64,000 nucleotides of DNA from Raillietiella orientalis (GCA_036172245.1 JAYWIR010000096.1:1-64000); one strand, 5' to 3'. Positions 1 through 64,000 are shown, counted from the first letter of the stretch. A program made the numbers and translations. Notes: generated by a model from the letters alone, not told the origin.

Positions 1-410
1 TTCGCGGACGTGGCTGATTCTGCAGCCGTAGAAGGACGCCTCTCCGACTAGAAGAAGTTGCAGGCATATGTAGCCCAGGGCTGCAAACCTGCTCTTTGCT
101 ATAACGTAAGTGGAGTACGTACACCTGGGGTTGAGTATGTTGACGAACCATTTCGTGTGGGAGTGCAAGAGGAGGACCTGATCGCACTCATGCCTGTTCC
201 AGCATTGGGCTATGTCAAGGTGCTATGCAATCACGCCGCTCTTATGCAGGGGCTCCTTTGCACAACCTTGTCCATCCGTAAGAAAAAAGTATTTCCCACC
301 GCGATGGGCGAGTCTTTTGTAGTTGTTCTCTTAGACCTCAAGCCGCAGATCTACGTCAAACAACTGATAAACATGTAGGCGGAATTAGAACCCTTCACGC
401 GGTACAGAGG
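1..410 (+). mobile_element. Degenerate LINE ORF1 fragment (family F-like), cut by an antisense 3' end at 411
   Basis: FADVA..LQAYVAQGCKPAL..VGVQEEDLIALMP matches ORF1 at 17945; in-frame stops. Confidence 0.85.
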
Positions 411-2496
411 TTGCCACCTGGGTAAGCCGGAGGGTCTATTTAAATATCACAAAAGCGAAATACAAGGCTGCGCTCAAGGCCATAGACACCGCACGTGCAT
501 AGACGCTGGGACGCAACCCGGAGTAACTGTCCACGGCAGTGAAAGGGGATATGGGAAAAAATCAAAAACAAAAATATACTATAAACAAAACAAAAAGAAG
601 TTATAAGGAAGAGAAGAAATCAAAGTTCACTCGGAGGAGGACCCATCCGTCTAAGGAAGCCCTCGATGCCCATCCGCATATTCCCCAGATGGAGTCATCG
701 TTCAGGTCTGTACAGGAAGCATACAGCATGCTGGATGGCTTACCTCTCGTTCATGTCCCGATCTTCGTTGTTGGAGTCGTTTCAAGCCTCCACGATGCCT
801 AGAACGTAGCAGAATGCTGCTAGGACAGTGACTAGCTATAGGGCGTCCCACACCAAGAGATACTGGAGAACGTCTCTGGGGGTGCTGCCCATCGGGATCC
901 CGACGGTCGGCCCAAACCTTTCCCAAAGTGGTCGGAGGGCAGCACAGTGAACGATGAGTTGGCGGAGGTATTCCCGCTCCCCGCATCCAGCACACGCAGA
1001 ATCCACAGCTCCCCTTGTCCAATGGAAGAGGTGAGTGTTGCAGGGTAAACTCCAGTGCAACAGGAGCAACGTCGACTCTTACAACTGAAGGGGCAGGATC
1101 CTGAATTCTCTTGAAACCGTTCGCCACTTCAGCTCCTCCATCGGGATGGCGAGCAGCTCTCCCTATCGCAAAAGTCCTCTCGGCTGGACGCTCGGGGTCG
1201 TGGCGTCAGCCAGCTCTCTCATCCGCTCATCATCTTCTCCCGTCCCGCTATGCAGCAGGAGACTTGCCACCTTGGCGTCCGGCTGCTGTGAAGCGCCCTT
1301 CTCAGGAAGAGCAACGCCGTAGCTAGGCAGGTTGTCTCTGTCCACGTGCTTCTGGCATGACTCTCCAGAAGGTTCCGCAGAGTGCAGCGGGCAAAGGGGC
1401 CACGTCGCAGGTGCATCAACGTCTCGTGTATCCTCTGGTTTAGGAATGCCCACGGGCCGATGTTCTCCAACAGGCAAGCGGGGAAGTTGAAGAAGCAGCA
1501 AAGCATCCACTGTTCTCCTTCGCCATGGCTGCAATGCGTCCGAGCAGTAGGCCGCATCTTCGGATCTTCCGGCATGAACACAGAAGAAAAGATGCGAGTC
1601 TCTCGGTTCGAGATACACGACTGGCAACGAGTCGAGACAAAATGCACCAAGGTGTCCACCACATCTTCGCTGCGATGGCCATTGTTCGCCACTGCAGCTG
1701 AATCTCCACGCGCTCCAGTGTCGGGATGCTAAGACCGCTGCGACGACGCGAAGCGCACAAGTCCTTCAAAGGGACTCAGGGCCTACCCTAGCCCCAAAGG
1801 GCGATGCGAAGGATCTCATTGGTCCTTTTTTTTATTTCTACGGGTCGAAGCAAACAAAGAGCAGAGGATGAAGGATGGGGGCCGCGAAGGCGTTCCAAAG
1901 CGCGGAATGTTCCTGGAAGTAAAACTTATCTTCCAGGGACGGGCCGATCGCCAACTCCATTTTTTGAATACGACCTGACCAAGCTTCTGTGGGACAGAGG
2001 TCCCCCAGCAGGACGCTTAGTTTCTTCAGGTGCCTGGCCAAAAGGATCCAGTGAGGCCATCCTACCCACGTCGCTCCAATTAGCACCACCGATGACTTAG
2101 CTTGGTTAATGAGCAGTCCGGTCCCGCTAATAAGCGAATCAAAGAAGTCCCCTTCTGTCGCTGCCGTAGTGGACATAGGAAAAAAAAACAGAAGATCGAC
2201 GGCATACGCTGAAACGGCGGGAGTGCCAAGGCACGAGCTCGCCAAGGGAGCCAAAGCAGCCCTGTACGCTGTCAGCACCAAAGCAAAGTAGGTACTAAAG
2301 AGCAGGGGACAGAGACTATCGTCCTTTCTTATGCCCCGCCGCACAGGAACGCCATACACCTTTTGTCCACTAAAACAAAGCGTGATCAGCGCATTGCGAC
2401 TGCAGGAGAGTAGCTAGGTAATATAGGTGGGTGGAAAGCCCATGTGACGGAGACCTCCAGCAGGAGATCCTGGTCCACGCAGTCGACCTCTTTATG
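411..2496 (-). mobile_element. LINE 3' half (E-like): RT C-terminal half, CCHC finger, 3' UTR, terminal hairpin; degenerate
   Basis: HKEVDCVDQ, GVPVRRGIRKDDSLCPLLF, YAVDLL, CAGCGEREYLRQLIVHC; 3' end CCTCCGGCTTACCCAGGTGGCAA at 411-433; UTR resembles 47550-47696. Confidence 0.88.
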
Positions 2497-2503
2497 CGCC
2501 CTA

Positions 2504-3698
2504 GGGCGAACGTTTTTTGTTTGTGCTCCTCGTGCCAGAACCACCCCTCCCTCAGTGCTCGCGTTCAATGGTCCAGTGGTCGATCAGGTAGCGATGCCTG
2601 AGACAATCACCAGTGAGTGCCAGGAGGCCGCGGGAACGTCGCCCCAAGAGGCGAAGGAGTACCAGGGGGCGGAGGCAACGTCGCCCTCAGAGGCGATGGA
2701 GGTGGGGACATCCGCCCCCACAGAATCGATCCCCGCAGCAGCGCGGGCGTGGAGCGCCGTCATGGCGGCGCCATTGCTTGCAATCGCGGCGGAATTGTCT
2801 GCCTATGTGGAGGAAGGATATAACTTCTCACTGTTCTACAAGGTAGGCAATCTATATTGTTCTGAGAGTGCTCGCCAATTCTCTAAAGGGATGCGTGCTC
2901 TCAATATACAGGAGGAGTAGCTCTGCGCTGTGACCATGCGTAGCGGGGGTAGTACGTTGAGCTGAACTGCAAACAGGCAGATCTGGCCCAGCGTCAGCTC
3001 AAAAACACCGTGGCGATGGGGACACGCAGGCTCCTTCCCATTACGGCGGACCCCAGTATGGTGGAAAACCGGTTGAAGGTTATAGCGCGGATGCGGAAAG
3101 AACAAGTACGCGCCGCTTTAGATGAACACGGAACGGTCCATGCAGTTTGGACCAAGCCTAGTACCTTTGAGAACTACACTAGACTGCAATGCGGCCTCAC
3201 GGCTGACGCGTAACCGTCCGCGAGGGCACCTTTCTACACCACAAACTGGTGCTCGGCGGCGAAACCGTCGACCGTTGGTATGTGGGGAAGTTCAAATAAT
3301 GTGGTTTCTGCAACACGTCAGGCCACTTCGAAACGAGGTACCCCAACGTGCAGTGCTTCGTATACGGTACAATGGGCCACACGAGGGAAGTGTGCTCACA
3401 AGCTTCTGTGTGCCTGGTTTCCAAAAGAAACTCTATAAAACGAGCTTGGTTGCTACAGAAAAAGGCTGGCGGCGAAAGCAGCCGCGACAGCTGTGCCACC
3501 CGCGTCCATGGTCCAGGCTGCAATCGAGACACCGGCAAAGAACGCCGAAAATGTAGAAAGAAACGGCCAGAAGCCTGGCTGGCAAGAAGCTACAACAGAA
3601 AATAGATCGAAAAAGAACGCCGACCTGAAAAAAAGTTAGCCTACCAAAACAAAAAAAACAAAAGGTAGTGAGATCATAAAGAAATGCAGCGTCGTTGT
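2504..3698 (+). mobile_element. Family A 5' fragment (5' UTR + disrupted ORF1)
   Basis: GAACGTTTTTT head at 2508; MPETITSECQ..ARAWSAV..EEGYN; zinc knuckles near 3300-3400; homologous to 29753 and 42301 copies. Confidence 0.9.
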
Positions 3699-6154
3699 AT
3701 ATTACCCGGTTGCGCCGGGACGTTCAGTAATGTCATCTGGGAACTGCCTTCTCTGGCAAGGGGAACACAAGATGCGCAGTAGGGTTCCCAACAAGCAGGC
3801 CAGGCGCACTGAGAGTTGGGAACGGGAGAAGGGGGACAATCAATAAAAAAATAAGGTGATAGGGTGTAGATAGGTAACCGCTGTCCAGGAGTTTCTATTC
3901 TCAGATCCGACTGCGAATGCCGCCAATCACCGTCCTTACTTCTGCTCTGAGGTGGGGCCACCCGGCAGACATTTGCAGGTTGCTGGATGCAGTGTCGGGA
4001 CAGATGTTGGGACCACTCTAATACGTGGCAGGCCCTGACAATGGCGCGAACGCAGCAGATAAATAAAACCACCGCTCCAAGAGAAAGACCGCCACACGTG
4101 AAAAAGCGGCGCATCCAATCCATTGCTGTGCGTCCGAGGTGCAGGAGACCTGAACACAGCCGCCGCTACAGCTCCTGGTGGGCACCGCATTCAAACAGCA
4201 AATGCGGAAGCGATTCCACCGCTCCGTATTTGGCACAGTTCGGAGACGCAATCCCCCTGGAAATCAGGTGCCCCCGCTAGTTGCAGTACGAACCCCAATG
4301 CACCAGCAGAAAAGCGTCCTGTTTCCAGCGAAGGGGGAAGAGAGTCGCGTCCAAACATGCAGAAGGGATTACAAGTTCATCGGTAGGCACCCCTAGGAGC
4401 TCACTCCACAGGAGAAGTCTTTTGGCACGAATGAGAGGCGTGGCAGCGTCTGGCAGCTTGCGATTCCTCCAGACGCCTAGCAGTCGTGTTTCGCCTACGA
4501 TTCCGCAAGAGACCTCCCACCTCGCCGGTAGGGCACTGTCGTGTCGCACCATCAGTGCAGACTGTGCTACTGCAAGATGCTTAGCGGCTAGGCATATCCA
4601 CTGGTCCTGGTCCTTGAGCACCTCCCCCACTGGACAGTATGGGGAAAGGTTCACACGACGGAGTTAAAAACGGGACAAATCCTTTTGCACTGCCCAGGAC
4701 GATTAGGCTTCCTGCCTCCAGGCATTGATTCTCGTCGGCCGGCAGGAGATCCAAGTATCCTTTCCCAGAAGTGAGGCGAGCTGCTTCACAGGGAAGCCGA
4801 ATCCTCGCTGAACGCGCTCCGTGCGCAGGTGCAGCGAAAAAAGTCCGTGGCCACCCGTGCAGCGCCGCAGCAACAGCCGCGCTGAAGCAGACCAGGTCCA
4901 TAGCTGGGCGCACAGTGCCAGCATGCAAAACTGCACTAGCAGTCCGATCTGCTGCAGCGTCAGGATGCCGAATCCTGCATCCCTCGAGGAGCCGTTTAGT
5001 CCTTCGGGCGGATACTGGACTTCGCCGGTCTCCGAAATGCGTATGGCAAGAAGCGTTTTGCCCGACGCTAACTGAGTAGGGAGAACATCAAACAAAAAAA
5101 AAGGTGACGGAGGATAGGGGCAACGAAAATGTTTCACGCGAAAATGTTTCACAGACTGCTGTGGGCCCTGTCCGACAGGACGAAACTGCCGCCTTGAAAC
5201 GGGCCCAGAGCAGTCTCGGCCATGTGAATGCATACCGACCACGCTTCTGCTTGATAGAAAGCTCCCAAGTAAACGCCAAGGTAATTGAAGCAGCTGCATG
5301 TTGGGATCGTTAGGCGCTTCCAGTAGGACTGCCCCTCCCACCTAAAGCCAACCGGTACAAAGGTAGATTTTGTCCTCTTGACGCTCAGGCCCGCTCCCCG
5401 ACGAATGAGTTCAAAGACGTTTTCGAGTTTGCACACCTGGGTGGACATGGGCAGCAGCAGGAAAAGGTCGTCACGATAGGCGGCCACGGACGGAGTTCCC
5501 GAGCAGAAGATCGGCAGGGTGGCCAGCGTCAGCCTGTTCGCTGTCAGCACCAACTAAAAGAAAATGCTGAAAAGCAGGGGGCTTAAGCTGCCTCCGTGCC
5601 TGATACTCCGCCGTATAGGAACACCATACACGTGGCGCCTGCTAAAAGGGATACAACATAACGCGTGGCGCCCGCAGGAGCGGAAGTAGGCGCTGAGGTG
5701 CGCAGGGAGGATGAAGCGTCCCACAAGCTCCAAAAATAGGTGCTGGTTTACGCTGTCAAACGCTTTGCAGAGAACTTCCTCGACTGCTAAGGCCCTCAAC
5801 GTTACATCGTGCCTTGAGCACCGCCGCTTACCTTTGGCAGCGGGACTTTCCGCTGACTGCCTTTGCTGCGCCACGTGCTGCTGCAACTCCAACGATGTAC
5901 GCGCGAAGAACAGATTCGCGTCCATGGACCGCTTTGGAAAAGCAACCGTCTGCACCGGACTTACCGAGGAATCTGCGATTCACCACAGCCGCGCGACAAA
6001 AACTATCGAGAACAACTGGAGGTCCGAATTCACCAAGTTGATCGGACGCCAGCAATTGAGGTGGCGCAGATCCCCGCCTTTCATTAGGAGCCGCACCATT
6101 GTTGACCGGAGAGAAGCGGCAACATCTCCAGTCTCCCGCATCAGCGCCTGCCGC
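3699..6154 (-). mobile_element. LINE 3' portion (family K): RT to 3' hairpin, heavily degenerate
   Basis: LMRETGDV, WRPI, KAFDSVNQ, GGSLSPLLF, YRDDL, YLGV; 3' end GTCCCGGCGCAACCGGGTAAT at 3701-3722. Confidence 0.87.
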
Positions 6155-6962
6155 GCACAGACGTGCTTTTGCGTCGCTTTGCGGTAGGCTCACTCTTCTG
6201 TGTTTTTGTTCTGCTGTGCTTCGGTGCTGCAATGAGAGTAAAAATGAACATCAGTTACAAGATGTGAACGGTATCTGCTCCTAAGATGGCGATTTCGGCT
6301 GATAGCAAGAAGCCACAGTTCTTGCCGACGGCGAGCACATACGCCCAGGTCGCTGCACTCACGGCTACGATGAGACCTTCGTCCGACATCCCTGAGCTTC
6401 AGGCGTATGTAGCAAATGGCTACACGCCTGCACTCAGGTATAAGGTTAGTGTCCTTATGCCTGAGCGAGTTATGCGCGAGTTTGGCCAGGAACTCCGACG
6501 GATTGGAGTTCAAAAAGGCCAACTGGAGTCCATCATGCCCATGAGTGGGTGCGGCTACTGGGAGGTGTCCAGTAAGGACGCTCTCCTTACGCAGCGTTTG
6601 CTGCACACGTCGCTGCTCATTCGTGAGCAGGAAATGCTCCCTGTCACAACGGAACAGTCGTTCGCTCTCCGGCTCAGTAGAGTGTGTAAGGGCCTTTCGG
6701 ACCTCCAGGTCGTGGAGGCCCTTGAAAAACTCGCTATCGTCCACGCGCTCTGGAGGCTGCCAAACCCTGCTGAAGGGTTCGAAGACCACCACAGCGGGCT
6801 CGCGCAAGTGCGAGAGACGATGACGGATCGCCGTGCAATGCCCACGCGACTGCAGGTGGATAGAATAACCGTCCGCCTGTGGTTTGCCGGGCAAACGCGT
6901 GTATGCGCGGAATGCGGGCAGGAAGGTCACCGCATTACGAAGTGTCCCTCAGCCTCTTGCCG
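6155..6962 (+). mobile_element. Family I 5' fragment (ORF1 up to first zinc knuckle)
   Basis: AGACGTGCTTTT head at 6159; ORF from 6286 with CAECGQEGHRITKC; homologous to 62448-63928. ORF tail after ~6962 is antisense J sequence. Confidence 0.9.
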
Positions 6963-7588
6963 CCACCGACGCATACGAAAAGGGCTGCGCCGCCACAGCC
7001 GAACAAGATGGCGTGACGCCCTGTACCGCGTGCACGCCAGCGGGTCTTGCCTGGGACGCTGCCGCCGCGTGCGCAACCCTCGACGTCGCCACCGTTGCCG
7101 CCGCGGGCGGCACCCTCGGCATCGCCGCTGCAGGCGCGACCTTCCCCGCCGCGGGCACGATCCTCAGCGTCGCCGCTACGGGCACAACCTCCGCCGTCGT
7201 CGCCGCGGGCATGACACTTGGCATCGCCTCCGCCGGCGCAGCAAACCCCGAAGTGGGCGCGATCCTCGGCATGCCCGCCACCGTCTCGCCGTTGCTGCAC
7301 ATTACCTCCATGGCTTCCATGGGGGACGACGGTCTCTCCACTTCTCCTCCAGGTGCCTGCATCCTGGCAGCTGGTCTTGCTGCACGGAACGACTGCAGGT
7401 CTTCCGCCGTGATCTCCTCGGCGCTTTTTCGTAGCTGTATGAGGAGATCCTATGCAGCACACTCTAGTCCACACTCACTTTCTTCTGGATTCTTTTCCTC
7501 TCCGGGCACACAAGATCAGAATTAACTGATTAATCATCGTCGTGCGCGCATTACTATGAGCTGCGAAGCAAGGTCACCGAGTCGGCAG
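6963..7588 (-). mobile_element. Family J 5' fragment (5' UTR + Ala/Pro-rich ORF1 N-terminus)
   Basis: MQAPGGEVERPSSPMEAMEV..MPRIAP matches 10480-10867 and 57710-58150; head TGCCGACTCGGTGA. Confidence 0.87.
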
Positions 7589-10500
7589 TTTTCCCCGAGT
7601 CCCACTAGGGGTGGGGTAAATTTATTTTTCTCAAATTTTTCTAGAAAAACATTCACACTACAATCTCATCCATACCATTGGCACCTTTTTTACCACCATG
7701 AAGTCCTTGGGTTCTCACAAGTTCTGCACTCATGGTGGATTTCCTGCTGTTTGGTCGCGGGCGTCGTCTTCTATCCTCTTCAGGATGAATCGGCACGTTT
7801 AGGCTTGGATTTTCCCACAGTTTCTAATGCCGATTTACCTCTTCAGGAGCCCTTGTAGGATCTCCATCGCTGGTGCGGCTCTTCTGGCTTTCCTCATTTT
7901 CCACCACCGCACAAGTATGGCGGTGATGAAGAGGGCGATGGTCGTCCTCACCATGGGATTGTAACAGGGAACATTACCATCCCCCTGAAACATCCCGGCG
8001 AGGATCTCCATTACGGACCTGGTGGTGAGTCCGATGATCCTTTTCAGGATCAGCCAGTCATGCAGCAAGGTGGGACACGTCAAGACGTGAAGACTCGTGT
8101 CGATGTCTCCACATGCTGTGCAGACTCGATCTTCCCTTCTTCCCGTGTAGTGCAGCAATCGGGACCCACTCTGGATTCCTCCATGATAAAACATCAGGAG
8201 GTCATCCTGGGTGCCCGGCGGAAGGTCACTTCTCCAGAGCGTCGTGCCAATCGCTAACAGGTTGATCCGGTCACTCCCGTAGCGATCGGCGGCTTCCTGG
8301 AGGACACTGATATCACTGTGTTCTTCTTGAATTAGTCTTCGGAGGTTTGTTTTGGTCACCCTGGACCACGCAAAGTCGTTGTGATTAAACCACACTTCGC
8401 GAGTCATGTGGATAAACCTTCCTAACATCATCTCTATATACCTAAGTATACGAGTGTGATGTAGGTACCCTCCTCGTTTCCACTCCTGGATTCGTTGAAG
8501 GGTAACTCTGGACCGCTGGTGGATCCAGCTTCTCGTGTCCGGCGGGACAGGAAGCATCCAAGAAATCACCAGGATAAACTCGTCCTGCCAGAGTTCCCTA
8601 CTTCTCGGCACGATCTTGATTTTGTGCTTTCGCACCAGCCGTGGCTTCCTCGTCCAGGTAGGGTCGATTTTTTTCCATTTGCCTGCTCGGCCTAGCAGCG
8701 CAGTCATCAGGCCTTTCGAGTTGTTCAACAACAACGCGTAGGCCCTGTGCGCCGCATACGGCCAGTCATTCCAGTGAGTGGCAATGTCCAGGATGTGTTG
8801 CGTATCCATGATTTCTATGGAGTGTGCAAGCGACTTCATCCCGGAACCGCCTTCTTCCCTGGGACGACACAGGGGTTTTAGTCGGACTCTTGGGCGATAG
8901 TGGCCCCACAGTGTTTTTCTCTGCAGCTTGTCGAACTCCCTCGTGGTTTCCTTGTTCATCCTCGCGAAGGCCGCCCCGAAGAGCACTTTTGGAAGGAGTA
9001 CTCCGTTCCATATGTTGGCCTTTCGCTTCATTCCAAGGTCCGTTCGGGTGTACTTGGCTGCTTCCTTGGCCGTTTTCCCTAGGATCAAGGTCCACAATAG
9101 CTTCGACGCGGAGACGTCGCCAATGTAGACACCCAGGTACTTGGCCTTGTCCACCGTTCGGAATCCTCTCCTTGCTAGAGTGGAGAGATCGAGGATTCCA
9201 ACGGGCAAGAGCTGGCTTTTATGGGCGTTGCTCTTTAGACCGAGGCCTTGATCCATCAGGTCTACCACATAAAGAAACGCTCGTTGATTTCTCTCTCCCT
9301 TGATAAAGAAGAGTAGATCATCAGCGTATGCCAGATAAGTAAGACGCTGGCCATCTATTGTTATGCCTTGCAGTCGTCCGCTCTTCTCGATAAAGGACCA
9401 CAACGCCTCCATGTAGATGACGAACAGCATAGGACTAAACGAATCGCCCTGCCGGACTCCCCGTTCCATCCGGATTGCTGCCGCCTCCTGGCCTTTGATT
9501 TTGATTCAACAGTACTGGTTCTGGAGTACCATTCTCACGAAGTTGCTGAAGTGTTCCGTAAGTCCGAGCTTTTCCAGAACCATCAGCAGCATCTTATGGT
9601 CGATGGAGTCGAAAGCCTTCTCCATGTCAGTGAACACCAGCGCCAGATTCTCGCCGACGTATTGGCTGAGTCCGACGGTGGCCTGGGCACACTTGACATT
9701 GTCCGACATGTGACGTCCAGGGACTGCACACGTTTGGACCGGAGAGATGAGCCTCGACATGACCTTGCCTAAGCGGTTGGACCAGATCTTCGCCAACCAC
9801 TTGGCATCGGAGTTTAGGATCGAGATTGGCCTCCATTGAGCGACCTGCGTGAGGTCGGCTTCTTTTGGCAACAAGCACATCCGACTCTCGTAGAAGGACT
9901 GTGGAAGTCTTCCCTCTTAGCGGATGCAGAGGGTCAACTGGTGGAACAAACGCAGGTAGGCATGCAAGTACCGCTGATAGTGAGTGATGGGTACGCTGTC
10001 AGGGCCCGCTGCCACGTCCCTGCGTAGTTGACCAAACGCAGTCTTCTCCTCGTCTTCGGAGAATTCCTCCTCCAGTCTGTTCCGCTGGAGATCGTCAATC
10101 CTCTTCTCGAGGTAGCTCAGAAAGGCCTGTTGACTAGACCGACAGAATGTTGTCGCCTAAAGTGTTTCGTGTAATGCCTTTGAAAGGCTTCCACGATATC
10201 TTTGGACGACTGTCGCTCTTGACCGTCGTACTGGATGCAGAAGATATCTGTTGCCAGATTTCTTTTCTCCAGCACGCCGACTTCCCCTTTTATGTTCTTG
10301 CAGACGTACCGACTCTCGTACTGATCGAAGTACTTTGAGAGTGAGCGATCTTGGATGTTCAGCTCCCGGTACGCGTCTTGCTTCAAGCACCTATCCCCGA
10401 ACTGCATGTTCGCAAACAGTTGTATCCTGTGTTTCAGGCTGTCCCAGTCGGCGACTCTTCGGATTGTTGTTGCCCTTAGAATCGTCCTCGGCGTCCCCGC

Positions 10501-15571: not shown

Positions 15572-15667
15572 CTTGGCGAGTGGACGTGTGTTTCCCTCGC
15601 TCCCGAGTGAGTCGAAAGGAAGCGGTTTTTTCTATTGTTGTTTGGTGTGGAACATCGTTGGTGTCCG

Positions 15668-17422: not shown

Positions 17423-17892
17423 CACCTGGGCTCGCCAGTCACCGTCGGATTCGCGCCGCCTGTTGGAATGTCAACGGGCTGCGCGACGACGGTAACAGGC
17501 GAGATACAGCCGACACCCTGCGGGAGTTCGACCTGGCCCTGTTGCAGGAGATCCACGTGATCACCGCGGCAGACGTCCAGGAGATCGAGACGATCGCGGG
17601 GGGTCGGCTGTACTGGCAATGCGGCATCCGCAACACCTGAGGGGTCGCGTTCTTCGTGAAGCCGGCCATCGACGCTGCCGTGAAGGGCGTGCGCTTCGAT
17701 GACGACGGTCGGGTCGGTCAGCTGACTCTCGGCTGGTCGGACTCGATCGATCTGATCGTCACGAATGTGTACGCCCCAACCGGTCAAAAGGGATACAGCA
17801 ACCGTACCAGGCTGCTTGAATCCCTGAAGCGCGACTGGCTGGCGAACACGAGCGTGCGGAAGGCTCACCTGATAGCGGGAGATTTCAATCGA

Positions 17893-43779: not shown

Positions 43780-43795
43780 AGGAGGACGTGTTTTT
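43780..43795 (+). promoter_or_regulatory. Conserved LINE 5' terminal motif GGACGTGTTTT (putative internal promoter/initiator); representative copy
   Basis: Also at 2508, 6159, 15582, 17897, 29757, 42305, 53543 (+) and 25134, 28530, 63924 (-), always ~60-130 nt upstream of ORF1. Confidence 0.65.
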
Positions 43796-43868
43796 CCTTC
43801 ACTCCCCAAAGAGTAGTAGGAAAGCGCTTTTTCTTCTGTGTGGTGTTTTGTGTACATCGTCGCTGTCC

Positions 43869-45615: not shown

Positions 45616-45620
45616 GAGTA

Positions 45621-47465: not shown

Positions 47466-47664
47466 CCCTCCTCTCAGCGAACAGTGATCCCTTCATTGCC
47501 CCCCAACCTCATTTGTTTGTTTGCCTTCTTGTTTTTATTTTTGTTTTTTCCTATTTCCTTTTGCTGCCGGGGAGTGCCACGCCGGGCTGCGTCTCGGCGT
47601 CCCGGTAGGTCCCGTGCATAAGGCCGTGAGCGGGGCTGGTACCGCAATTGCAGAGTTTTTTATA

Positions 47665-47696
47665 AATAAACGCCCCGGGCGTACCCGGGTGGCAAT
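47665..47696 (+). terminator. Conserved LINE 3' terminus: AATAAA + CCCGG(G) stem-loop; representative copy
   Basis: Variants at 411, 3701, 12584, 20947, 25151, 26725, 40139, 49073 (-) and 35283, 54604 (+). Confidence 0.7.
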
Positions 47697-53538: not shown

Positions 53539-54633
53539 GAGAGGACGTGTTTTTCGGTGCTTCCGAAAACCGTCTTTTTTGCGAGTGTCGGTGTTTTTCT
53601 AGGTGCGGTCGTTCCTGGGCAGAAATGCCCGAGGACACCGCCGCCACGGCGAAGGGGGGCGAGCGAGCCTCGTCCCCCCAACCCATGGATGTGAGGGCCA
53701 TCTCCCCCACGGATTCGTCCCCCGCCCCGGCGAGGGCTTGGAGCGCGGTGGTGGCGGCGCCTGCGCCGCCACCATGCGAGGAACAGCGGGCCTATGAGTC
53801 CCACGGATATAATCCGGCCCTACTGTATAAGGTAGGTGGGCTTTATTCTCCCGCGATGCAAAAAGGTTTCTCTTTCTCCGCACTCGACACAGCGGGCATC
53901 CACATTTCCCAGTGTCCAGTGAGACAGGCGTGTTCTGCTTAACAGTCCCCAGTGCAGAAATAGCAACGCCGTCTCCTGCCACTTGAACGGAAGTGTGCCG
54001 CAATCCCAATACGCTGGGGGCCATTTCACCTTCTCCGGAGGTATTGCAAGCAGCTCTCCTCAGCGCGCAAGTCCGTGAGGCGGGACGCTCGTGGTGGCAG
54101 CGTCCGTGTGCTCCCGAGTCGTCCACGCCTTCAAAGGTTTTTTCCTGCCTCGGATGAGGCAGGACTCTCCCCACGATTCCAGCTCGTTGCTGCTCCTACG
54201 GTTTTTCAGGGAGGACAGATCGGGGGCAAGGGGACTGAAAGAAGTCCACAGAAATTTCCGGGGCGTGTTGATAATATCCTGCAGCGGCTGTCGAGCGTAC
54301 GGTCCTCGTCGTAGGCAGTTGTATTCCGCCTCGCTCGTGCTCTTCATCTTAGCCCACGCGGAAGACGACTCCTGAAGCCAGGCAGTGCAGTTCGCGGGAA
54401 GGCAGGAGATCCAGGTATTCTCCCTCATCAGGGCGAATTTTTTTTTTTTTGTTCTAGTTTTCCCTTCCCATGCGCCTCGGGAATGGACATAACCGGTCTA
54501 TGCACCGGCAAAAGAAACGTCAACCAAGGTGGGAAAACCAAGTGTTTCCCACAATTAACTTTTGAAAGACTTAATTATCTAATTTTTTTAAAAAATTAGA
54601 ATAATAAATGCCCTGGAAAATCCGGGTGGCAAA
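53539..54633 (+). mobile_element. ~1.1-kb family C mini-element: 5' end (+), inverted ORF2 C-terminal piece (~53856-54436), 3' UTR (+)
   Basis: 53543-53855 matches 24820-25134; inverted part matches 21530-22110; 54437-54633 matches 20947-21140. Confidence 0.9.
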
Positions 54634-57549
54634 CCACATACGGAGGCGGGCAAACAAAAAATAAGGGGCGGAGGAGAGGGGCAAGGAAATTGTTCCATAT
54701 GCACGCCCTTTCAGGCAAGACGAACCTGCCTTCCAGGAAAGTGCCTAGAGCCATCTCTGCCTTCTGAAGACAGGCTGACCACGATTCAGACGAGCAGAAG
54801 TCGCCCAACGGAACGCCAAGGTACTTGGAGTACCTGTCCGTGGGGATCCCCAGGCGGATCCTTTCGGCCTGTCCCTCCCACGACGCACTCACCGGCACTA
54901 CGTAGCACTTCGCTTTGCTAACGCTCATGCTTGCTCCACGACGGATCAGCTCGAAGAAGTCTTGGAGCGAGTCCGGCGGAGTAGACATGGGCAACAGAAG
55001 CAGAAGGTCGTCGGCGTATGCTTCCGCCGACGGAGTCCACGGACAGGCGCTGGGCAGGACGGCCAGCTTCAGCCTGTACGCTTTTACCACCAACTCAAAG
55101 TAGATGCTGAAGAGCAACGGGCTTAAGCTGTCGCCCTGTCTGATGCCTCTGCGCACGGCCACTCGGTACACGCGGGAGCTACTGAAATACAAGTTGATAA
55201 TCGCGTGGCGCCGCAACGCACTCTTAAAGCTGCCACCAGGTGCGCGCGAAAAGAAGGTTTGCATCCATGGATCTTCCCGGTACAGCGTAAGACTGCTCCG
55301 GGCTTACCATGGACTCCGCGACATTCCCTATGAGCGTCACCCACAGCTTCGAAAACAACTTTACGTCCGTATTCACTAATGAGATCGGAAGCCAGTTTTT
55401 GAGATGGCGCAGATCCTCTCATTCCGGGAGGAGACGCACCCTCGCTGAGAGGAAGGAATAAGGGACATCGCCCGTTACCCTCATCAGCGTCGAGATTCTA
55501 AGCACCAGTGGGGCGAGTTCGGCCGCGAAGCTCTCATAGAACAAAGCGGGCAGTCCGTCCTCACATGGCGTCTTCCGTTTCTTGAGTCCTGCGATAGCGG
55601 AAGAAACTTCCTCCAACGTGAAGGGCTCGTCGAGACGATCGCGTTCCTCCTCGCCGATGCCATGTGCAGCCCGCGGCAAAAGTAGTTCGGAGAGGACTCT
55701 TTTCGTCGGGAAATTAGCGTAGAGCAAGGAGGAGTGACGCTTTAGTGCTCGCCGCACTTCGTCAGGAGCCGTGCATTCCCTGCGTTGGTCGTCGAGCAGA
55801 ATAGCCGCTCCAGACAGCCAGACCGGGAGCTCGGCCCTCGCCTTGTACTCTGCGAGTTGCCGTACTTCCGCACGTCTCGAGAAGGTGCGCGCCTGCAGAA
55901 ATGCTCTGCTATTGGCCACGTCTTCTCTGAAGCCGCGTAGTGGCAGGTGCAGGGGGAACCGGTCGCAAAACTTGCGAACCGATCTTTTAAGATGGTCCCA
56001 GTCTGCGAGTTCCCGGATGGCAAAGCCGCGAAGGAACTGGCGAAGATGCTCCGCCGCTTCCGGATGACTCAGCCAATCCGCCGGCATCCTCCAAACATTG
56101 TTTGGAGGTCTCTTGCCCGGCAAGAGTTGCTCGAACTAAAGCCTATCATCGTCCGATAACGTAGACGGCACCCGGCCTCATCGTCCCACTCGCGATAGTA
56201 GGTGTTCATCGAGGTAGAGGTGATCTACGCACCTTTCCAGTCCAGGCTCGCCGGCATCCAAGTTACGCGCGTGCAACGACGCGCATGCCTCTTCCACCCG
56301 CGACCGTTATGCCAGGAAACGCGTCTCGAAGGAAAGCAGGTGGACGTTGAAGTCCCCTGCGACGAGTTGCGCCACTCTGGCTCCGGAGTTTCTGAGCCAT
56401 TGTCTCTCCAGCACGAGGAAGAACTCGATTCTTTCGACACGCCGATGAAAGCCGCGCGGCGCGTAGACGTTCGTTACGACGAGGTCGATTGAATCTGACC
56501 ACCTGAGTACAAGTTGGCCCATTCGCCCTTCCTGGTCTAATCGAACGCTGCGCACCGCTCTTGCCATCCTACTGTTGACGAGAAAACCGACTCCGCACGA
56601 TTGTGCAGAACCTTCTCGCCAGTAAAGGGTGCCACCCGCGCGCTTTTCGATTTCCGCAACCTCCGCATCGGAGATGTAATGCTTCTCCTGAAGGATCGCC
56701 AAATCGGAATGTTGCAGGGGGCCTAACACGCCGCGCCTCTTTTTGTCCCTGCGCAGCCCATTGACGTTCCAACAGGCTATGCTGAATCGACGAGAAGAGG
56801 TGACTTCCTGCATTAAGGCTGGGAAGGTGAGCACAGGTTTCTCGCCTTGTCCAGCGAGTGGTCAGGAGACAGAGCAATCGATCTCAAAGACGTGAAATCT
56901 CCATTCGAAGCCGCACTGCTTGTTGCCGGTAGCTCAGACGTGAGGTCCTTTTCCTCCTCTTCGCTCCCCTGCAACAGCCCCTCCTCGGCAACTACGCACT
57001 TGCGGGTCTTCGATAGGCGAATGCGCGGTTTCGGGCGGTTGTCGCGCTCTGTGCACTTTCTGTCGGACTCTGGATCAGAATCCGACAGTCGAAAGCTTGC
57101 CATGCGCTGCTGCTGTTTCCCGGAATTAAAGAAATCGTTTGCTGCCTGTTTCCTAGCGCTTTCTGCAACTGCGGCTGAAACTTTCGTCCTTTTAGCCGCA
57201 GCAGCAGCTTCCCGCTTCATCCGCGAGAGGACAACAGCGCAGGAGGAAAGAATAGCAATCTTTTTCTGGGAATGTTTCGCGGGCTTCTTTCGCTTACTCA
57301 CCTTTACACAGACCTGCGAAGACCTTGATGGTTTCTTTCTTATGTTCTATCTCACTGGCGTCCAGCCGTCTTGCTTGGCGTCGCAGTTATCTTTGCCATC
57401 CTGAGATGGCGCTGCTTCCACGGATGTAAAAGGCGTTGCCTTGGCTGCCTCTTGGAGCGCTGCCTCCACGCAGGCGTCAGCAACTCCTTTAGCGATCGAA
57501 AGAGCCTTGCGCACGGGCGGTATCGCCGCCGCTGAACGAAAAGGAGGCG
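54634..57549 (-). mobile_element. I/F-like internal portion (ORF1 C-terminus, EN, RT)
   Basis: TAATG at 56815-56811; CWNVNGL, GDFN, KTPCEDG, QGDSLSP, YADD; motif A region deleted near 55215. Confidence 0.9.
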
Positions 57550-57707
57550 TGATTATTGCTAGTTCAAAACTATACCCAATACCTCACCAAGGTAATGTTT
57601 AAAACCACTGCCAAGGCAATTTTTGAGTGCCCTGAGAGGGCAAATGTTTAAGTGAACGCCAGTGTGGAAAGAGTTCAACCGAGGACCATCATCAGCAGCA
57701 GCAGCAT

Positions 57708-60700
57708 CGCCGACAATTCCACGGTGGAAGTCCTGCAGTCGTTCCGAGCAGCAAGAACAGCTGCCAGGATGCAGGCATCTGGAGTTGGAGGAGTGGTGAG
57801 GCCATCGTCCGTCATGAAAGCCATGGAGGTGACGAGCGGAAACGGCGAGGTGGCGGCAGGCATGCCGAGGATCGCGTCCGCGGCGGGCTTTGCTGCGCCG
57901 GAGGCGGCGATGCCAAGGGTCGTGCCCGCGGCGACGACGGCGGAGGTCGTGCCCGCGGCGGCGACGCCGAGGATCGTGCCCGCGGCGGGGAAGGTCGCGC
58001 CTGCGGCGGCGATGCCGAGGGTGTCGCCCGCGGCGGTAACGGCGGCAACGTCGAGGTTTACGCCCGCGGCGACGGCGTCCCAGGCGGGACCCGCGGGCGT
58101 CCAGGCGGTGCAGGGAGCGACGCAATCTTGTTCGGCTTCGGAGTCGCAGCCCTTTTCTATGCGTCGGTTGCGGCTGGACAGGCGAGTGTCCACCCACCTA
58201 GGAAATTTGGTAAGCTGCTTAGCGGAAAAGTTCTAAAACTGGACCGACCAATAGTCGAAATGGGCCCCAACGTGAAGCCCATTATCTTCAAAACCGGGCT
58301 AATAAAATTTAATAACTTCAGGTAGGTCTATTTGTCACTCGACAAGACGGACATAGACTTTGATCGCATTCAGGCGATCATTCCATCGAACAACGGGTTC
58401 ACAGTCTTTACAGACTGTGAAAACATTACAGAGCGATTGATCCAGAAGGGGATCAATATACAAGGACGGATGGTTTGTGCTATTGGCGAGATGCCATATA
58501 CAACCGTCTTTTTAAACGGCATCTCCATCCGCACGCCGCAACTAGCGGTGTGGAATTACTGGGAGCAGTTTGGGGAAGTTCTGGACCTTGATTACCAGAA
58601 CATCCCTGGAAACATATTTTCTGGCGACATGATCGCAAAGATGAAGTTGAAAGAGGGAGCGATGATCCCTGGATTGACCGTTATTGACGAACAATCGCCG
58701 GCAGCGAGAAGCCCGCTGCTTCTTTGACGTCTGAAAGAGCACGCTCTCCCAGACATAAGAAGCTCAGGAAGGCCAAGAAATAGGTCTTCCCATTTTATGA
58801 CCTCTCCCTATCGACCGCCAGAAGGCTGAACATCGCCTCATGGAACGTCAACGGTGTTGTCGACCAGGCAAAAAGAAGAAGGATTGTGCGGACCATCGCA
58901 CAACAAGACATCGTGTGCCTGCAGGAGACCCACAGGATGGGTCTCGAGATCAGCCAGCGAATGGAACGGCGATTCAACGGGCAGATGTTCGTCAGCGAAG
59001 GAGAACGGAACACGAAGGGTGTGGCGGTGCTAATAAAGAACCACTTAGCCCCCACTATTCTGGAAGTGTTCTGTCCCCAACCCGGACGAATCAACGGCGT
59101 GCGACTGGCCTGGTCCGCGACTGTTCACCTTATCCTGGTGAACGTGTACGGGCCGCACAGGCTAAAACATCGTTGTGCGGAGGCGCTGCATGCAGCACTC
59201 CGTGAAAAGGTTGCTTCCAAGGACGTCGTGATTGTTGCTGGCGATCTCAACATATTGGATGAGATCACTCACTCCGAAGACGCCAGAGAAAGGACGGCGT
59301 ATCGGCGGTTATCCGACGAGTTCGGACTGGTGTGGCGAACTGCAAGTCACAAGCCGATCGATCACGTCCTGCACAGCACCGAACTTGGGAATCGCATCCA
59401 GGGTTTTCGAGACATTATGACCACGGTGTCCGATCACCCCCTGGTGCGGTTTTCCCTAAGAACGGAGAATCCTCGGCGGAGGCACGGCACCAGGGCGGCG
59501 CTCATCAGCATGCCCGCCTGGTTCGAAACCCATCCCGGACATCAGGCTGTCCTGGAGGCGATTCTGAGGGCAACAACAATCCGAAGAGTCGCCGACTGGG
59601 ACAGCCTGAAACACAGGATACACCTGTTTGCGAACATGCAGTTCGGGGATAGGCGCTTGAGGCAAGAGGCGTACCGGGAGCTGAACATCCAAGATCGCTC
59701 CCTCTCAAAGTAATTCGATCAGTACGAGAGTCGGTACGTCCTCAATAACATAAAAGGGGAAGTCGGCGTGCTGGAGAAGAGAAATCTGGCAACAGATATC
59801 TTCTGCATCCAGTACGACGTTTAAAAGCGACAGTCGTTTGAGAATATCGTGGATGCCTTTCACAGGCATTACACGAAACACTTCAGGCGACAACAACTGT
59901 GTCGCTCTAGTCTACAGGCCTTCTTCAGCTATCTCGAGAATAGGACCGACGACCTATAGCGGAACAGACTGAAGGAGGAGTTCTCCGAAGAAGAGGTGAA
60001 GACTGCGTTTGGGCAGCTTCGCAAGGACTTGACAGCGTGCCCTGACAGTGTACCCATCACGCACTATCAGCGGTACCTGCACGCCTGCCTGCGCTTGTTC
60101 CACCAGTTGACCCTCTGCATCCGGGAAGAAGGCAGACTACCTCAGTCCTTCTACGAGTGTCGGATGAAATTGCTGCCGAAAGGAGGCGACTCTACCCAGG
60201 TCGCCCTATGGAGGCCAATCTCGATCTTAAACTCGGATGCCAAGTGGTTGGCGAAGATCTGGTCCAACCGCTTAGGCAAGGTCATGTCGAGGCTCATCTC
60301 TCCGGTGCAAACGTGTGCAGTCCCAGGACGACACATGTCGGACAATGTCAAATGTGCCCAGGCCACTGTTGGACTCAGTCGATACGTCGGCGAGAACCTG
60401 GTGCTGATGTTCACTGACATGGAGAAGGCCTTCGACTCCATCGACCATGGGATGCTGCTGAAGGTTCTGGAGAAGCTAGGGCTTCCGGAACACTTCAGCA
60501 ACTTCGTGAGGGCGGTACTCCAGAACCAGTACTGCCGGATCAAGATCAACGGCCAGGAGACGGCAGCAATCAGGATGGAACGGGGAGTCCGACAGGGCGA
60601 CTCGCTAAGTCCGATGCTGTTCGTCATCTATATGGAGGCGTTGTCGTCCTTTATCGAGAAGAGCGGACGACTAAGAGGGATTACCATCGATAGCCAGCGT

Positions 60701-62447
60701 CTTACCCATCTGGCATACGCCGATGATCTACTCTTCTTCATCAAGGGAGAGAAAAATCAGCGTGCGTTTCTGGATGTGGTGGACCTGATGGAACAGGGCT
60801 TGGGCTTAAAAATTAATTCCCAGAAGAGCCAGCTTTTGCCCGTCGGAATACTGGATCTCTCCACTCTAACGGGTAGTGGATTCCGTACGGTGGACACGGC
60901 CAAGTACCTGGGAGTCTACATCGGCGACGGCTCTGCGTCGAAGCTGCTGTGGAAGAAAATCCTGGGGAAAACGGCCAAGGAAGCTGTCAAGTACACTTGA
61001 ACGGACCTTTGGATGAAGCGAAAGGCCAACATATGGAACGGAGTACTCCTTCCGAAAGTGCTCTTCTGGGCGGCCTTCGCAAGGATGAACAAGGACACTA
61101 CTAGGGAGTTCGACAAGCTGCAAAGAAAAACACTCTGGGGCCACTATCGCCCAAGAGTAAGACTTAAACCCCTGTGTCGTCCCACGGAAGAAGGCGGTTC
61201 CGGGATGAAGTCGCTTGCACATTCCACGGAAATCATGGATACGCAAATCATCCTGGACATTGCCACTCACTGGGATGACTGGTGGTATGCGGCGCACAGG
61301 GCCTACGCGTTGTTGCTTAACAACTCGAAACGGCTGATGACTGCGCTGCTAGGCAAAGTAGGGGAATGGATAACAATCGACCCGACCTGGAGGAGGAAGA
61401 AACGGCTGGTGCGGAAACACCAAATCGAGATCGTGCCGCTAAGCAGGGAACTCTGGCAGGACGAGTGCATCCTGGTGATCCCTCGGATGCTTCCTGTCCC
61501 ACCGGACACGAGAAGCTGGATCTACCAGCGGTCCAGAGTTACCCTACTGCAAATCCAGGAGTGGAGGCGAGGAGGCTACCTACATCAAACTCGTGTACTT
61601 CGGTATACAGAGATGATGTTAGGAAGGTTTATCCACAGCACACGCGAAGTGTGGTTCAACCACAACGACTTCGCATGGTCGAGGGTAACCAGAACAAACC
61701 TCCGAAGGTTTATTCAAGAAAACGACCGTGACACCAGTGCCCTCCAGGAAGCCACCGAACGCTACGGGAGTGAACGGTTCAACCTGTTAGCGATCGGTAC
61801 GACGCTCTGGAGGAGTGACCTTCCGCCGGGCACCCAGGATGACCTCCTGATGTTTTATCACGGAGGAATCCAAAGTGGGTCCCGATTGCAGCACTTCACA
61901 GGAAGACGGGAAGACCGAGACTGCGAGCATGTGGAGACGACGACACGAGACTTCACGTCTTGACGTGTCCCACACTGCTGCATGACTGGCTGATCCTGAA
62001 AAGGATCATAGGACTTACCAACAAGTCCGCTATGGAGATCCTCGCCGGGATGTTTCATGGGTATGGTAATGTTCCCTGTTACAATTTCATGGTGAGGACG
62101 ACCATAGCCCTCTTCATCACCGCCATACTTGTGCGGTGGTGGAAAATGAGGAAATCCAGGAGAGCCGCACCACCGATGGAGATCCTACAAGGGCCCTTGA
62201 AGAGGGAAAACGGCATCAGGAACTGCGGGAATATCCACGCCTGGACGTATCGATTCATCCTGAAGAGGATCCAGGACGACGCCCGGGACCATCCAGCTGG
62301 AATTCCCACCTGAAAAGCAGAACCCTAGTGCAACCAAAGGACCTACAAGTGCAAAATGTTTGTATTGAGTGAATGAGAGTGCGAATGTAAATATTGTATT
62401 TTTATAGAAAAATAAACTTACCCCACCCCTTGTGGGACTTGGGGAAA
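57708..62447 (+). mobile_element. Near full-length family J element (5' UTR missing; ORFs disrupted)
   Basis: Ala-rich ORF1 start, RRM-like region 58332-58690, SWNVNG/GDLN/IDH/SDH EN, RT YADD, stop 62313, 3' end AATAAACTTACCCCACCCCTTGTGGGACTTGGGGAAA. Confidence 0.93.
57860..58085 (+). repeat. GC-rich degenerate 24-27-bp coding repeats (PRxVPAAA) in family J ORF1
   Basis: Repeated CCCGCGGCG; same array near 7060-7280 and 10490-10610 on the minus strand. Confidence 0.78.
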
Positions 62448-63928
62448 CTTAGCGATCGCGAGAGGCGCTGCCTCTTCCAGATCGGAGGGTTCGCGCGTTG
62501 CCTTTGCGACCGTTGGGGGCACTGCTGTAGCGGTTGTGCTCGCCCTAGCAGTTTCTTCCTTGGCCGCAGTAGGCGCTGCGTCCGCGCGCGAGGACTGCGG
62601 GTTTGCCGGCTGTTTCTTCGCGGCACTCGGTGCCTGGGGCACCTTGGCCGCGGTAGCTTCAGACGGCTCGGTGTTCTTTGCCCGCGGGAGCGTTTTTCCC
62701 GTATCGGGCGAACGACCGCATTCCGCGCCGCTCGTCGAGGCCTTGGTACGAGGCTTCGCGGTCGTGATGCCGACAGTAGGAGGCTTTTTGACCTTCGGTA
62801 CAATGTCTCCTGCATTCAACAATTGGCTGCGAGGTCTCGTAGAAAGGTCGCATACTTCGCAAGCTTTCTTCGAATCGATAGCCGGAGGCTTTGCCGCGAC
62901 AACTTTTTTCGTTTTTCACCCCTATTTTGTCGGTGCAAGAAACAGTTTTCTGCACGTGAGTGGTCGCGGTTTTCGCAACGCTTTTCGAAGCTTTGATGTT
63001 TCTTTCTCTTGATTCGCGGCGATTATTCCGCGATGCGGAACGCGATTCGTTCCTGTGCTCTTCGTTTTTTAAAAGGAGCTCCGGGCACGTTCCTTTTCTG
63101 TGCCGGTGCACGTGGCAGTAACGGCAAGCGCCCAAGGGACACTTCGTAATACGGTGACCCTCCTGCCCGTATTCCGCGCGCACGCACGTTTGCCCGGCAA
63201 ACCACAGGTAGACGGTCATTCCATCCACCTGCAGTCGCGTGGGCATTGCACGGCAATCCGTCATCGTCACTCGCACTTGCGCGAGCCCGCTTTGGTGGTC
63301 TTCGATCCCTTCAGCAGGGTTTGGCAGCCTCGAAAGCGCGTGAACGGTAGGTAATTTTTCAAGGGCCTCCACGACCACGCGGCCCGAAATGCCCTTACAC
63401 ACTCCACTGAGCCGGACAACAAACGACTGGTCCGTTGTGACAGTGAGTATTGCCTGCCCACGAATAAGCGGTTGCGTGTGCAGCAAACGCTGCGTGAGAA
63501 GAGCGTCCTTACTGGACACCTCCCAGTAGCCGCACCCACTCATGGGCATGATGGACTCTAGTTGGCCTTTTTGAACTCCAATCCGTTGAGTTCCTGGCCA
63601 AACTCGCGCCCAACCCGCTCAGGCATAAGGACACTAACCTCATACCTGAGTGCAGGAGTGTAGCCATTTGCTACATACGCCTGAAGCTCAGGGATGTCGG
63701 GCGAAGGTCCCATTGTAGCCGGGAGGGCAGCGACCTAAGCGAATGTCCTCGCCGACGGCGAGTACAGAGGCTCCTTGCTTGCACCCAAAGCAGCCATCTC
63801 AGGAGCAGGTGGCGTTCCCTTCTTGCGGCTCATGTTCTTCTTTGCTCCCATTGCAGCACAGAAGCACAGCGGAACAAAAACACACAAGAGGCAATCTACC
63901 TCGGAGCGACGCAAAAACACGTCCGTAC
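62448..63928 (-). mobile_element. Family I 5' portion (5' end + disrupted ORF1)
   Basis: GGACGTGTTTTTG head at 63924; homologous to 6155-6962; CRYCHVHRHRKGTC. Confidence 0.9.
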
Positions 63929-64000
63929 GCGACCGTCGCTGATGCGTGTGACGGGAGGTGTTCCCGCTTATTTTCGCTCAGCAAAGGAGCGGCTCCTGCC
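63929..64000 (+). mobile_element. Start of another RT N-terminal fragment, continuing beyond the window
   Basis: SLMRVTGGVPAYFRSAKERLLP. Confidence 0.75.

Follow-up and report, generated by a model that had tools for sequence, protein, structure and literature searches.

A 64-kb window of DNA from Raillietiella orientalis (GCA_036172245.1 JAYWIR010000096.1:1-64000, the single stretch of 64,000 nucleotides on which all results below are based) consists almost entirely of fragments of long interspersed nuclear elements (LINEs) that abut one another. Elements of three insert types, here called A, C and E, recur at three conserved motifs in the second open reading frame (ORF2) of other LINEs, antisense to the host. 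We believe, with a probability of about 0.68, that the window is a LINE-only island in which three or more insert types direct sequence-specific nicks to the coding strand of ORF2 in other LINEs, so that the island nests into itself.

The G+C content is 53-63% across the 64 kb and long stop-free frames occur on both strands. Apurinic/apyrimidinic-type endonuclease (APE), reverse transcriptase (RT) or CCHC zinc-knuckle domains were found in 12 of 15 long ORFs compared with Pfam, with Exo_endo_phos and RVT_1 together within one ORF (45552-47621) and in many fragments. The closest solved structure to ORF2 is human LINE-1 ORF2p (E = 3.9e-41). A zf-CCHC match in the ORF1 at 15611-17422 scored 23.6 bits (cut-off 20.8), with weaker matches in three other ORF1s; the C-terminal zf-RVT of ORF2 scored 21.2 bits, below its cut-off of 27.5, and a CxxC..HLLxEC pattern is visible in three copies. 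With APE and RT in ORF2 and a CCHC ORF1 upstream, the elements are L1-superfamily (L1/Tx1-like) non-LTR (long terminal repeat) retrotransposons. In protein databases the only close relatives were two RT fragments, P0011 (68% identity) and P0015.

A fairly complete minus-strand element at 49066-53542, R1, served as a ruler: position R is 53800 minus the window position, and ORF2 extends over R 860-4464. The ORF pieces of R1 and eight ORF1s (tblastn) tile nearly the whole window on both strands. LINE fragments account for ~96% of the 64 kb, in ~34 pieces on the ordered map, and belong to at least 12 related L1/Tx1-like families when families are split at ~80% identity. A preliminary description of this DNA had counted ~30 fragments with almost no other DNA, close to what we find, and 9-10 families, fewer than counted here. 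About 2.6 kb (4%) has no recognisable LINE part (10868-11421, 19283-19783, 56829-57719 and 62441-63121); comparison of 62441-63121 (X) and 56829-57502 with LINE parts revealed no relationship.

Recounting gave 25 precise termini, 12 at 5′ ends and 13 at 3′ ends. The common 5′ end is GGACGTGTTTTT..., also given as GGACGTGTTTT.., and eleven of the 5′ ends read GGACGTG(T/C)TTTT..CGCTC, or begin with the variants GAACGTG or AGACGTG, and are T-rich after the heptamer. A profile built from eight 5′ ends recovers those eight and the ends of I1 and A2; the A1 end was spotted by eye when A1 was aligned with A3. The twelfth 5′ end, that of Z at ~26326 on the minus strand, is degenerate. The bare heptamer GGACGTG occurs 14 times with 10.1 expected, which is not significant; conservation lies instead in the longer leader found at alignment ends. 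The possibility that GGACGTG is derived from the target was rejected, as the motif runs into a conserved 5′ leader of 20-70 nucleotides (nt) and the flanks upstream differ. At most 5′ junctions 4-13 nt of filler lie between the host and GGACGTG, often ending in G(T/A/G)GC (for example 2497-2510, 42293-42305, 17890-17897 and 28529-28533); this filler is either untemplated addition or a few further conserved 5′ nucleotides.

Eleven 3′ ends carry AATAAA, a CCCGG-N5/6-CCGGG hairpin and then a tail of 5-7 nt, with no poly(A). The tails seen are TGGCAAA, TGAAA, TGGAAAA and TAATAT, and that of R1 and R2 is 18 nt long (TGTGAA plus 12 nt). Although the stem is kept in 11/11 ends, an RNA structure is only suggested because 0/4 predicted pairs show compensatory change; no Rfam family reaches its gathering score on these ends. 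In family J the 3′ end, seen twice, is of a separate type. A hairpin-like match at 24507-24522 was dropped as a terminus because it lies within an uninterrupted ORF1. Complete 5′ ends (12) are nearly as frequent as 3′ ends (13), several elements being internally deleted instead.

Recurrent junctions in ORF2

The motif DLxKAFD, which is RT motif A, lies at R 2630-2650 and is present in every family of the window, the distant family J included. Four A-type junctions fall there, in four hosts from different families (2497/2510, 42293/42305, 26724/26725 and 35312/35313; elements are listed in Table 1). The 3′ end of P follows directly after the D codon of DLQKAFD in V, antisense, at ..GCTTTCGAT/GTTCACCCGG (the slash marks the junction, before which stands ..TTCGAT), and the 3′ end of A2 follows directly after the D codon of DLHKAFD in E2, also antisense, at ..GCGTTTGAT/TTTCAGCCGG (..TTTGAT before the junction). 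The other two are 5′ junctions: next to A3, S-left retains RKAFDCVDQ, with 11 nt of filler, and next to A1, M retains (A)HKEVDCVDQ, equivalent to the DLxKAFD position, with ~8 nt of filler. Taken together, the 3′ and 5′ junctions of these different events would imply a stagger of ~15 nt. The A1 and A3 inserts are 78% identical and their hosts M and S-left 67%; identity between the hosts V and E2 is 68%, their extents are unequal, and their inserts P and A2 are structurally different. These comparisons show the four A-site events to be independent.

P is likely a non-autonomous rider on the A machinery that shares the DLxKAFD target. The hairpin loop GAAAT with the tail TGAA is found in P and A2 only, among all families, and the ORF1 of P is related to the E and A ORF1s (~45% amino acid identity). 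The 5′ end of P is antisense to U, an A-family RT fragment. The start of ORF1 in all three A copies also holds a 42-nt tandem repeat whose copy number varies (1.9-3.3 copies; 2615-2701, 29865-29944 and 42426-42563, plus strand). In Y, 200 nt have been lost (R 2536-2735; 55210-55212, minus strand), a clean deletion of exactly the DLxKAFD region that A-type elements hit in their hosts elsewhere.

The motif ECSxPxxV lies at R ~1970-1990, and C1 and C2 end there at the same nucleotide of their hosts K1 and K2 (12583/12584 and 20946/20947; GAATGCTCGGTTACAGACGACC/TTTGCCA and GAATGTTCAGCCCCAGCCGAAG/TTTGCCA). The inserts are 93.8% identical and the hosts 72.3%, with identity in 100-nt windows stepping from ~0.70 to ~0.94 right at the junction. 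H1 and K2 are continuous, and K1, which is probably the ORF2 of I1, is preceded by a different upstream element. Because host and insert identities differ with a step at the junction, and because the upstream contexts of K1 and K2 differ, C1 and C2 are two insertions. Aligned as a whole, C1/K1 and C2/K2 match at 87% over 4.2 kb; that they represent one duplicated event was rejected once host and insert had been compared separately.

At PPGFGEG (R 1808-1831) there are two E junctions, 15572/15582 and 47695/47697. The 3′ end of E3 lies antisense after PPGFG in S-right (..CCAGGTTTCGGC/tail), and at the 5′ junction of E1 the host C1 retains TTCGGCGAGGGC onward (GFGEG). The stagger is 6-18 nt, the host side of the 5′ junction being partly unreadable. 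Each host belongs to the C family. Over 121 nt, in which other families reach 65-83%, S-right matches C2 at 92.6%, and in the 93 nt adjoining the E junction C1 matches C2 at 93.5%. E1 and E3, by comparison, are 82% identical although they sit in copies ~93% alike, and they therefore come from diverged sources, too different to be copies of one insertion into a host this young. We also considered S-left and S-right as halves of one host and rejected this, since S-right is C family (92.6%) and S-left is only 74% identical to C.

The preliminary description had placed A at DLxKAFD, C at ECSxPxxV and E at PPGFGEG, and all three assignments stand, down to the nucleotide. It had further assigned family I to LMRxTGDV (R ~2246). 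Three 5′ ends do recur at this position, antisense to their hosts and within ~4 nt of each other (6147/6159, I1 in N; 63925/63924, I2; ~26326/26327, Z in V, newly recognised here). Z, however, is not of the I family: its ORF1 is nearest that of Q2 (46%) and matches I1 across only 39 residues. I1 and I2 may moreover represent one duplicated event. Identity is 78% across their 73-nt flank and 87% across the insert, whose own windows range over 71-99%, and both blocks carry a J copy, in arrangements that differ by deletions. LMRxTGDV is thus a hot spot of 5′ junctions for which no family specificity is demonstrated. Because unrelated families meet there and only with their 5′ ends, the position fits better as a hot spot of second-strand synthesis or joining than as a family-specific nick. 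A fifth hot spot at R ~3575, where U and W end, was not counted, the breakpoints being ~20 nt apart and of different kinds.

Terminus orientation was taken as the strand of the neighbouring fragment, read from tblastn and flank maps. In agreement with the preliminary count, 18 of the 25 termini adjoin a LINE of the opposite orientation (8/12 at 5′ ends and 10/13 at 3′ ends; one-sided binomial p = 0.02). Junctions at the recurrent sites are antisense in 11/11 cases, while the remaining 14 split 7 to 7; antisense insertion thus belongs to the recurrent sites and is not the general rule it had first seemed. Nor are insertion points uniform along the hosts within the window. The 15 host breakpoints within ORF2 form 11 pairs no more than 20 nt apart, compared with an average of 1.19 under uniform placement, and 0/100,000 uniform-placement simulations reached 11 pairs (P < 1e-5). 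With I2 removed as a possible duplicate, nine pairs remain (P = 5e-5). The on-site share of terminal junctions is 4/5 for A-type, 2/3 for C and 2/3 for E ends, and every one of these three sites is hit by ends of a single 3′-end type. The window itself shows the termini, the exact nucleotide of each junction, the orientation, and that the recurrent events arose independently.

Proposed mechanism and alternative explanations

We propose that the island was built by repeated retrotransposition of about a dozen related L1-superfamily families with common termini. A-type elements, P included, would prime on the host coding strand immediately past the final codon of DLxKAFD, and a second break ~15 nt upstream would duplicate the xKAFD codons. 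C-type elements would prime after the seventh codon of ECSxPxxV, and E-type elements inside PPGFG^EG. The new copy would be antisense because the nicked strand is the sense strand of the host. Each insertion would destroy the ORF2 of its host and supply fresh target sites, and the island would grow by self-nesting. We infer from the junctions the choice of site by the APE endonuclease, target-primed reverse transcription and the dynamics of island growth; the target-site duplication is a putative one, assembled from 5′ and 3′ junctions of separate events.

A wider claim is that the families form a community in which each endonuclease recognises a different ORF2 motif of the others, RT motif A included, and which sustains itself while disabling relatives or competitors. 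We put this forward tentatively, as the odds lie somewhat against it. The preliminary description had likewise given each LINE a conserved site of its own; this stands for the A, C and E types, the insert types for which site specificity is demonstrated, and fails at LMRxTGDV, which is not family-specific. If the wider claim is true, reciprocal LINE-on-LINE targeting alone would create and enlarge LINE-only islands like those at the centromeres of certain algae, and riders lacking ORF2, of which P is an example, would make use of these sites too.

Several observations weigh against sequence-specific nicking. The events per type are few (4, 2 and 2), and each target motif is empty in the majority of its copies; of the DLxKAFD copies in the window, for example, ~4/13 carry an insert. 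No A, C or E insert is flanked by the same host on both sides, so that the duplication is unseen in any single event; the same host occurs on both sides only for J in I and perhaps in the case of H1, and the two ends of A2 and of E3 lie in different hosts. Three terminal junctions are off-site: the 5′ end of A2, the fifth A-type junction, lies in U at R ~3575 in sense orientation, the 3′ end of C3 lies antisense in Y at R ~3282, and the 5′ end of E3 adjoins A3 in sense orientation. The LMRxTGDV position is common to unrelated families, with 5′ ends only. Same-orientation joins, head to tail or internal, occur at R2-Q2, Q2-C2, Z-R2, A3-E3 and T-E2; they point to template switching, deletion at the target or rearrangement at a later time. 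In an automated scan of nucleotide conservation the four sites lie at percentiles 12-66, not among the most conserved windows, a result of little weight either way as the alignment is unreliable near DLxKAFD.

Some of these features would also be expected if a regional cue, such as chromatin, a tethering factor or open breaks, draws the elements, and the recurrent positions are breakage or end-joining hot spots usable by any family. The use of LMRxTGDV by at least two unrelated families and the off-site orientation of 7/14 are consistent with such a cue, as are the usual difference between the hosts at the 5′ and 3′ flanks of one element (A2, E3) and the composites Q2+C2, Z+R2, A3+E3 and W+C3, which suggest template switching and messy joining. 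We nevertheless consider this explanation unlikely, since each site received one 3′-end type (DLxKAFD 4/4 A-type, ECSxPxxV 2/2 C, PPGFGEG 2/2 E), the 3′ junctions are exact to the nucleotide and all 11 junctions at the sites are antisense.

Still less probable, in our judgement, is that a few original junctions were segmentally duplicated and that later gene conversion among the inserts made them look younger than their hosts. Such conversion must span the whole 3 kb of C1/C2 and stop exactly at the 3′ terminus, and it leaves unexplained why K2 is joined to H1 while a different element lies upstream of K1. It has donors at hand, C copies being numerous and ~93% alike, and duplicated composites do exist in the form of the inverted I+J blocks at ~87%, with I1/I2 flanks not clearly more diverged than the inserts. 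At the A site, however, hosts differ in family and extent and inserts in structure, and one of the E junctions is a 5′ and the other a 3′ junction, in E copies 82% alike. The preliminary description had raised the possibility that all shared junctions trace to single duplicated events; this is not so, as insert and host identities differ at the C, A and E sites. Errors of assembly, finally, are a very improbable source of the junctions even in a region that is wholly repeats, since mis-joins arise in shared co-oriented sequence whereas here exact termini meet unrelated antisense sequence, and copies are at most 94% alike over kilobases except for one 686-bp stretch at 98.4%.

Sequences outside the window were searched as well. 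In protein databases, a profile made from the two host ORFs whose frame continues across the A junction (..KAFD plus xxPDFxGxF) found no junction-bearing protein. The conserved 3′ end pattern matched 19 metagenome loci, none similar to the window by blastn or tblastn, and these are accordingly chance matches.

Elements of the window and composite blocks

Table 1. Positions of the elements discussed in the text, with the state of each and its place relative to host or insert
Element	Position	Strand	Description
M	411..2497	-	Host of A1; 3′ end to R ~2640
A1	2508..3698	+	A-family 5′ part; 5′ end antisense to host M
N	3699..6147	-	Host of I1; 3′ end to R 2258; own 3′ end antisense to A1 ORF1
I1	6159..7587	+	5′ terminus AGACGTG, ORF1; ~12 nt upstream of LMRETGDV in N, antisense
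J1	7590..10489	-	Distant LINE family, ~30% amino acid identity to R1 ORF2; antisense within I1
K1	11422..12583	+	Host ORF2 fragment, APE to ECS; 72% to K2
C1	12584..15572	-	C family; 3′ end at ECSVTDD of K1, antisense; cut at PPGFGEG (R ~1816) by E1
E1	15582..17890	+	E-family 5′ terminus, ORF1, APE; 5′ end antisense to C1 at (A)KGFGEG
H1 incl. K2	17897..20946	+	5′ terminus, 468-residue ORF1, ORF2 to ECSAPAE; host of C2
C2	20947..24043	-	C family; 3′ end at ECSAPAE of H1/K2, antisense
Q2	24044-25134	-	5′ terminus and ORF1
R2	25144-25833	-	3′ end of R copy, 98.4% to R1; head to tail with Q2, 9 nt apart
Z	25834..26326	-	5′ part of non-I family, nearest Q2 and T; degenerate 5′ end antisense to V
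V	26327..26724	+	Host RT fragment, R 2246-2650; left LMRDLGDV (Z 5′ end), right DLQKAFD (P 3′ end)
P	26725..28529	-	1.8 kb; 5′ terminus, ORF1, A-type 3′ hairpin, no ORF2
A2	29757..35312	+	Full-length A-family LINE, 5.5 kb; 5′ GAACGTG, ORF1, frameshifted ORF2, 3′ hairpin with loop GAAAT and tail TGAAA
E2	35313..37741	-	E-family copy, 89% to E3; host of A2, cut at DLHKAFD
S-left	40139..42293	-	Host of A3; 3′ end to R 2639
A3	42305..43783	+	A-family 5′ part; 5′ end antisense to S-left; 3′ side cut by E3 5′ end
E3	43784..47695	+	Both termini; internal deletion, R ~2800 joined to 3′ untranslated region
S-right	47697..49065	-	C-family 5′ half; host of E3 at PPGFG
R1	49066..53542	-	3′ end adjoins S-right, same orientation; ORF1 cut by Q1 5′ end
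Q1	53543-53854	+	5′ end antisense to R1, cuts R1 ORF1
W	53855-54436	-	C family, R 3574-4158
C3	54438-54633	+	C-family 3′ untranslated region and 3′ end
Y	54634..56828	-	Host of C3; ORF2 R 926-3282
U4 snRNA	57503..57640	+	Full-length small nuclear RNA (snRNA), no LINE part; Rfam U4, 82.6 bits, model 1-138/138, Sm site present
J2	58175..62440	+	Longer J copy, 87.6% to J1; antisense between two I2 pieces
I2	63122..63924	-	I-family 5′ part, 87% to I1; abuts plus-strand RT fragment 63925-64000 at LMRVTGG

Hosts at the recurrent sites have junctions of their own. The 3′ end of M is antisense to an H-like ORF1 fragment (1-410, plus strand), that of S-left adjoins the ORF1 of element T in the same orientation, and the 5′ end of H1 adjoins E1 at R 1408, again in the same orientation.

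The stretch 20947-26326 (minus strand, 5.4 kb) comprises C2, Q2, R2 and Z and can be read as a head-to-tail pair of internally deleted elements. Its left boundary is the ECSxPxxV site of H1 (to R 1990) and its right boundary the LMRxTGDV site of V (from R 2246). If V continues H1, the block may be one compound insertion with a target deletion of 256 nt, and the ECSxPxxV and LMRxTGDV positions may be two ends of the same events. The youngest pair in the window is formed by the 3′ ends of R1 and R2, which share 98.4% identity across 686 nt. Both (25144-25161 and 49066-49083, minus strand) continue into the same 12 nt (CAACCYGCCGCC) before the flanks, which are in the same orientation, diverge; the shared 12 nt are either a long tail or a shared target. 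The inverted layout of W and C3 looks like the product of twin priming, with ~340 nt missing at the inversion joint.

The I+J blocks at 6086-10867 and 57720-63997 are inverted copies, ~87% identical. X (62441-63121), 680 nt without similarity elsewhere in the window, separates the 3′ end of J2 from the I2 break. Since removal of X and J2 joins the I2 pieces with a 4-nt overlap, X may be a 3′ transduction brought by J2. The U4 sequence lies between the upstream region of Y and an I2 piece and is antisense to both, and for this reason it is not a simple LINE-snRNA chimera with its neighbours. Tx1-type LINEs are known to target snRNA genes.

Relation to known target-specific LINEs

Target-specific LINEs insert into rRNA genes, snRNA genes, microsatellites, telomeres and a few DNA or LTR transposons. 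In stringent-type LINEs such as eel UnaL2, a 3′ stem-loop is recognised by the element's own RT. The elements of the window resemble these in having a conserved putative 3′ stem-loop and a short tail instead of relying on poly(A); they differ in that their 3′ ends match no Rfam family at gathering score and show no compensatory changes, so that the structure is only suggested.

The R1 and R2 LINEs of ribosomal DNA (rDNA) use a highly conserved multicopy rRNA gene, a target that is safe and always available, and R2 does so with a restriction-like endonuclease. Internally deleted and hybrid non-autonomous derivatives occur among R1/R2-type rDNA LINEs (PMC3414825). A conserved multicopy target is common to both cases, and those derivatives are comparable to P and to the 5′/3′ composites found here. 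The target is a host gene there, whereas here it is the RT gene of a competitor or relative.

The Zepp and ZeppL elements of green algae insert in nested fashion into existing copies and form dense, nearly LINE-only clusters that are putative centromeres; their arrays are described as tandem, of one family per species, and made mostly of 3′ ends through frequent 5′ truncation (PMC8226300, PMC3446292, PMC9940879 and PMC11005252). Compared by description only, both cases involve L1-type LINEs that nest into existing copies and build LINE-only clusters. In contrast to the algal arrays, the window holds at least 12 families, 12 of its ~25 termini are complete 5′ ends, orientation alternates, and insertion is antisense at fixed codons. 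Zepp reportedly ended in poly(A) in its original description, whereas the elements here have a hairpin and short tail at the 3′ end and no poly(A).

Closest are the Tx1-clade LINEs. In PMC4494074, Tx1 families insert at a fixed position and orientation in Mariner, Harbinger and LTR elements (Tx1 in Tx1D, Tx1-Mar in Mariner-N4_AMi, Tx1-9_AMi in Harbinger, Tx1-8_Crp and Tx1-4_AMi in LTR elements). Target choice there lies with the endonuclease, short interspersed elements (SINEs) share the target, and a target preference is accepted when one kind of sequence makes up >20% of flanks. Transposons are also named among LINE targets in PMC4640811. On the >20% measure, the on-site shares within our window (A-type 4/5, C 2/3, E 2/3) indicate target preference for all three types. 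Here too, APE-type LINEs occupy a fixed position and orientation within another transposon family, and a non-autonomous partner shares the target, SINEU with Tx1-Mar there and P with A here. The targets in the window differ in being LINEs of the same community, hit at ORF2 coding motifs that include RT motif A, and several families each have their own site, with hosts and inserts swapping roles.

The full-text literature searched, outside which most subscription-journal papers fall, contained no account of LINE families that target coding motifs of other LINEs. What is new here is that the targets lie at codon level within the RT gene of other LINEs and that several families use such targets in parallel. 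If the pattern holds genome-wide, it would provide a sequence-level mechanism for the rise and growth of LINE-only islands, which are candidate centromeres or heterochromatin, and it would mean that transposons compete by inactivating one another at essential motifs. It would also offer a naturally occurring series of related APE endonucleases that recognise different long sites, in which to study how specificity arises in L1-type enzymes.

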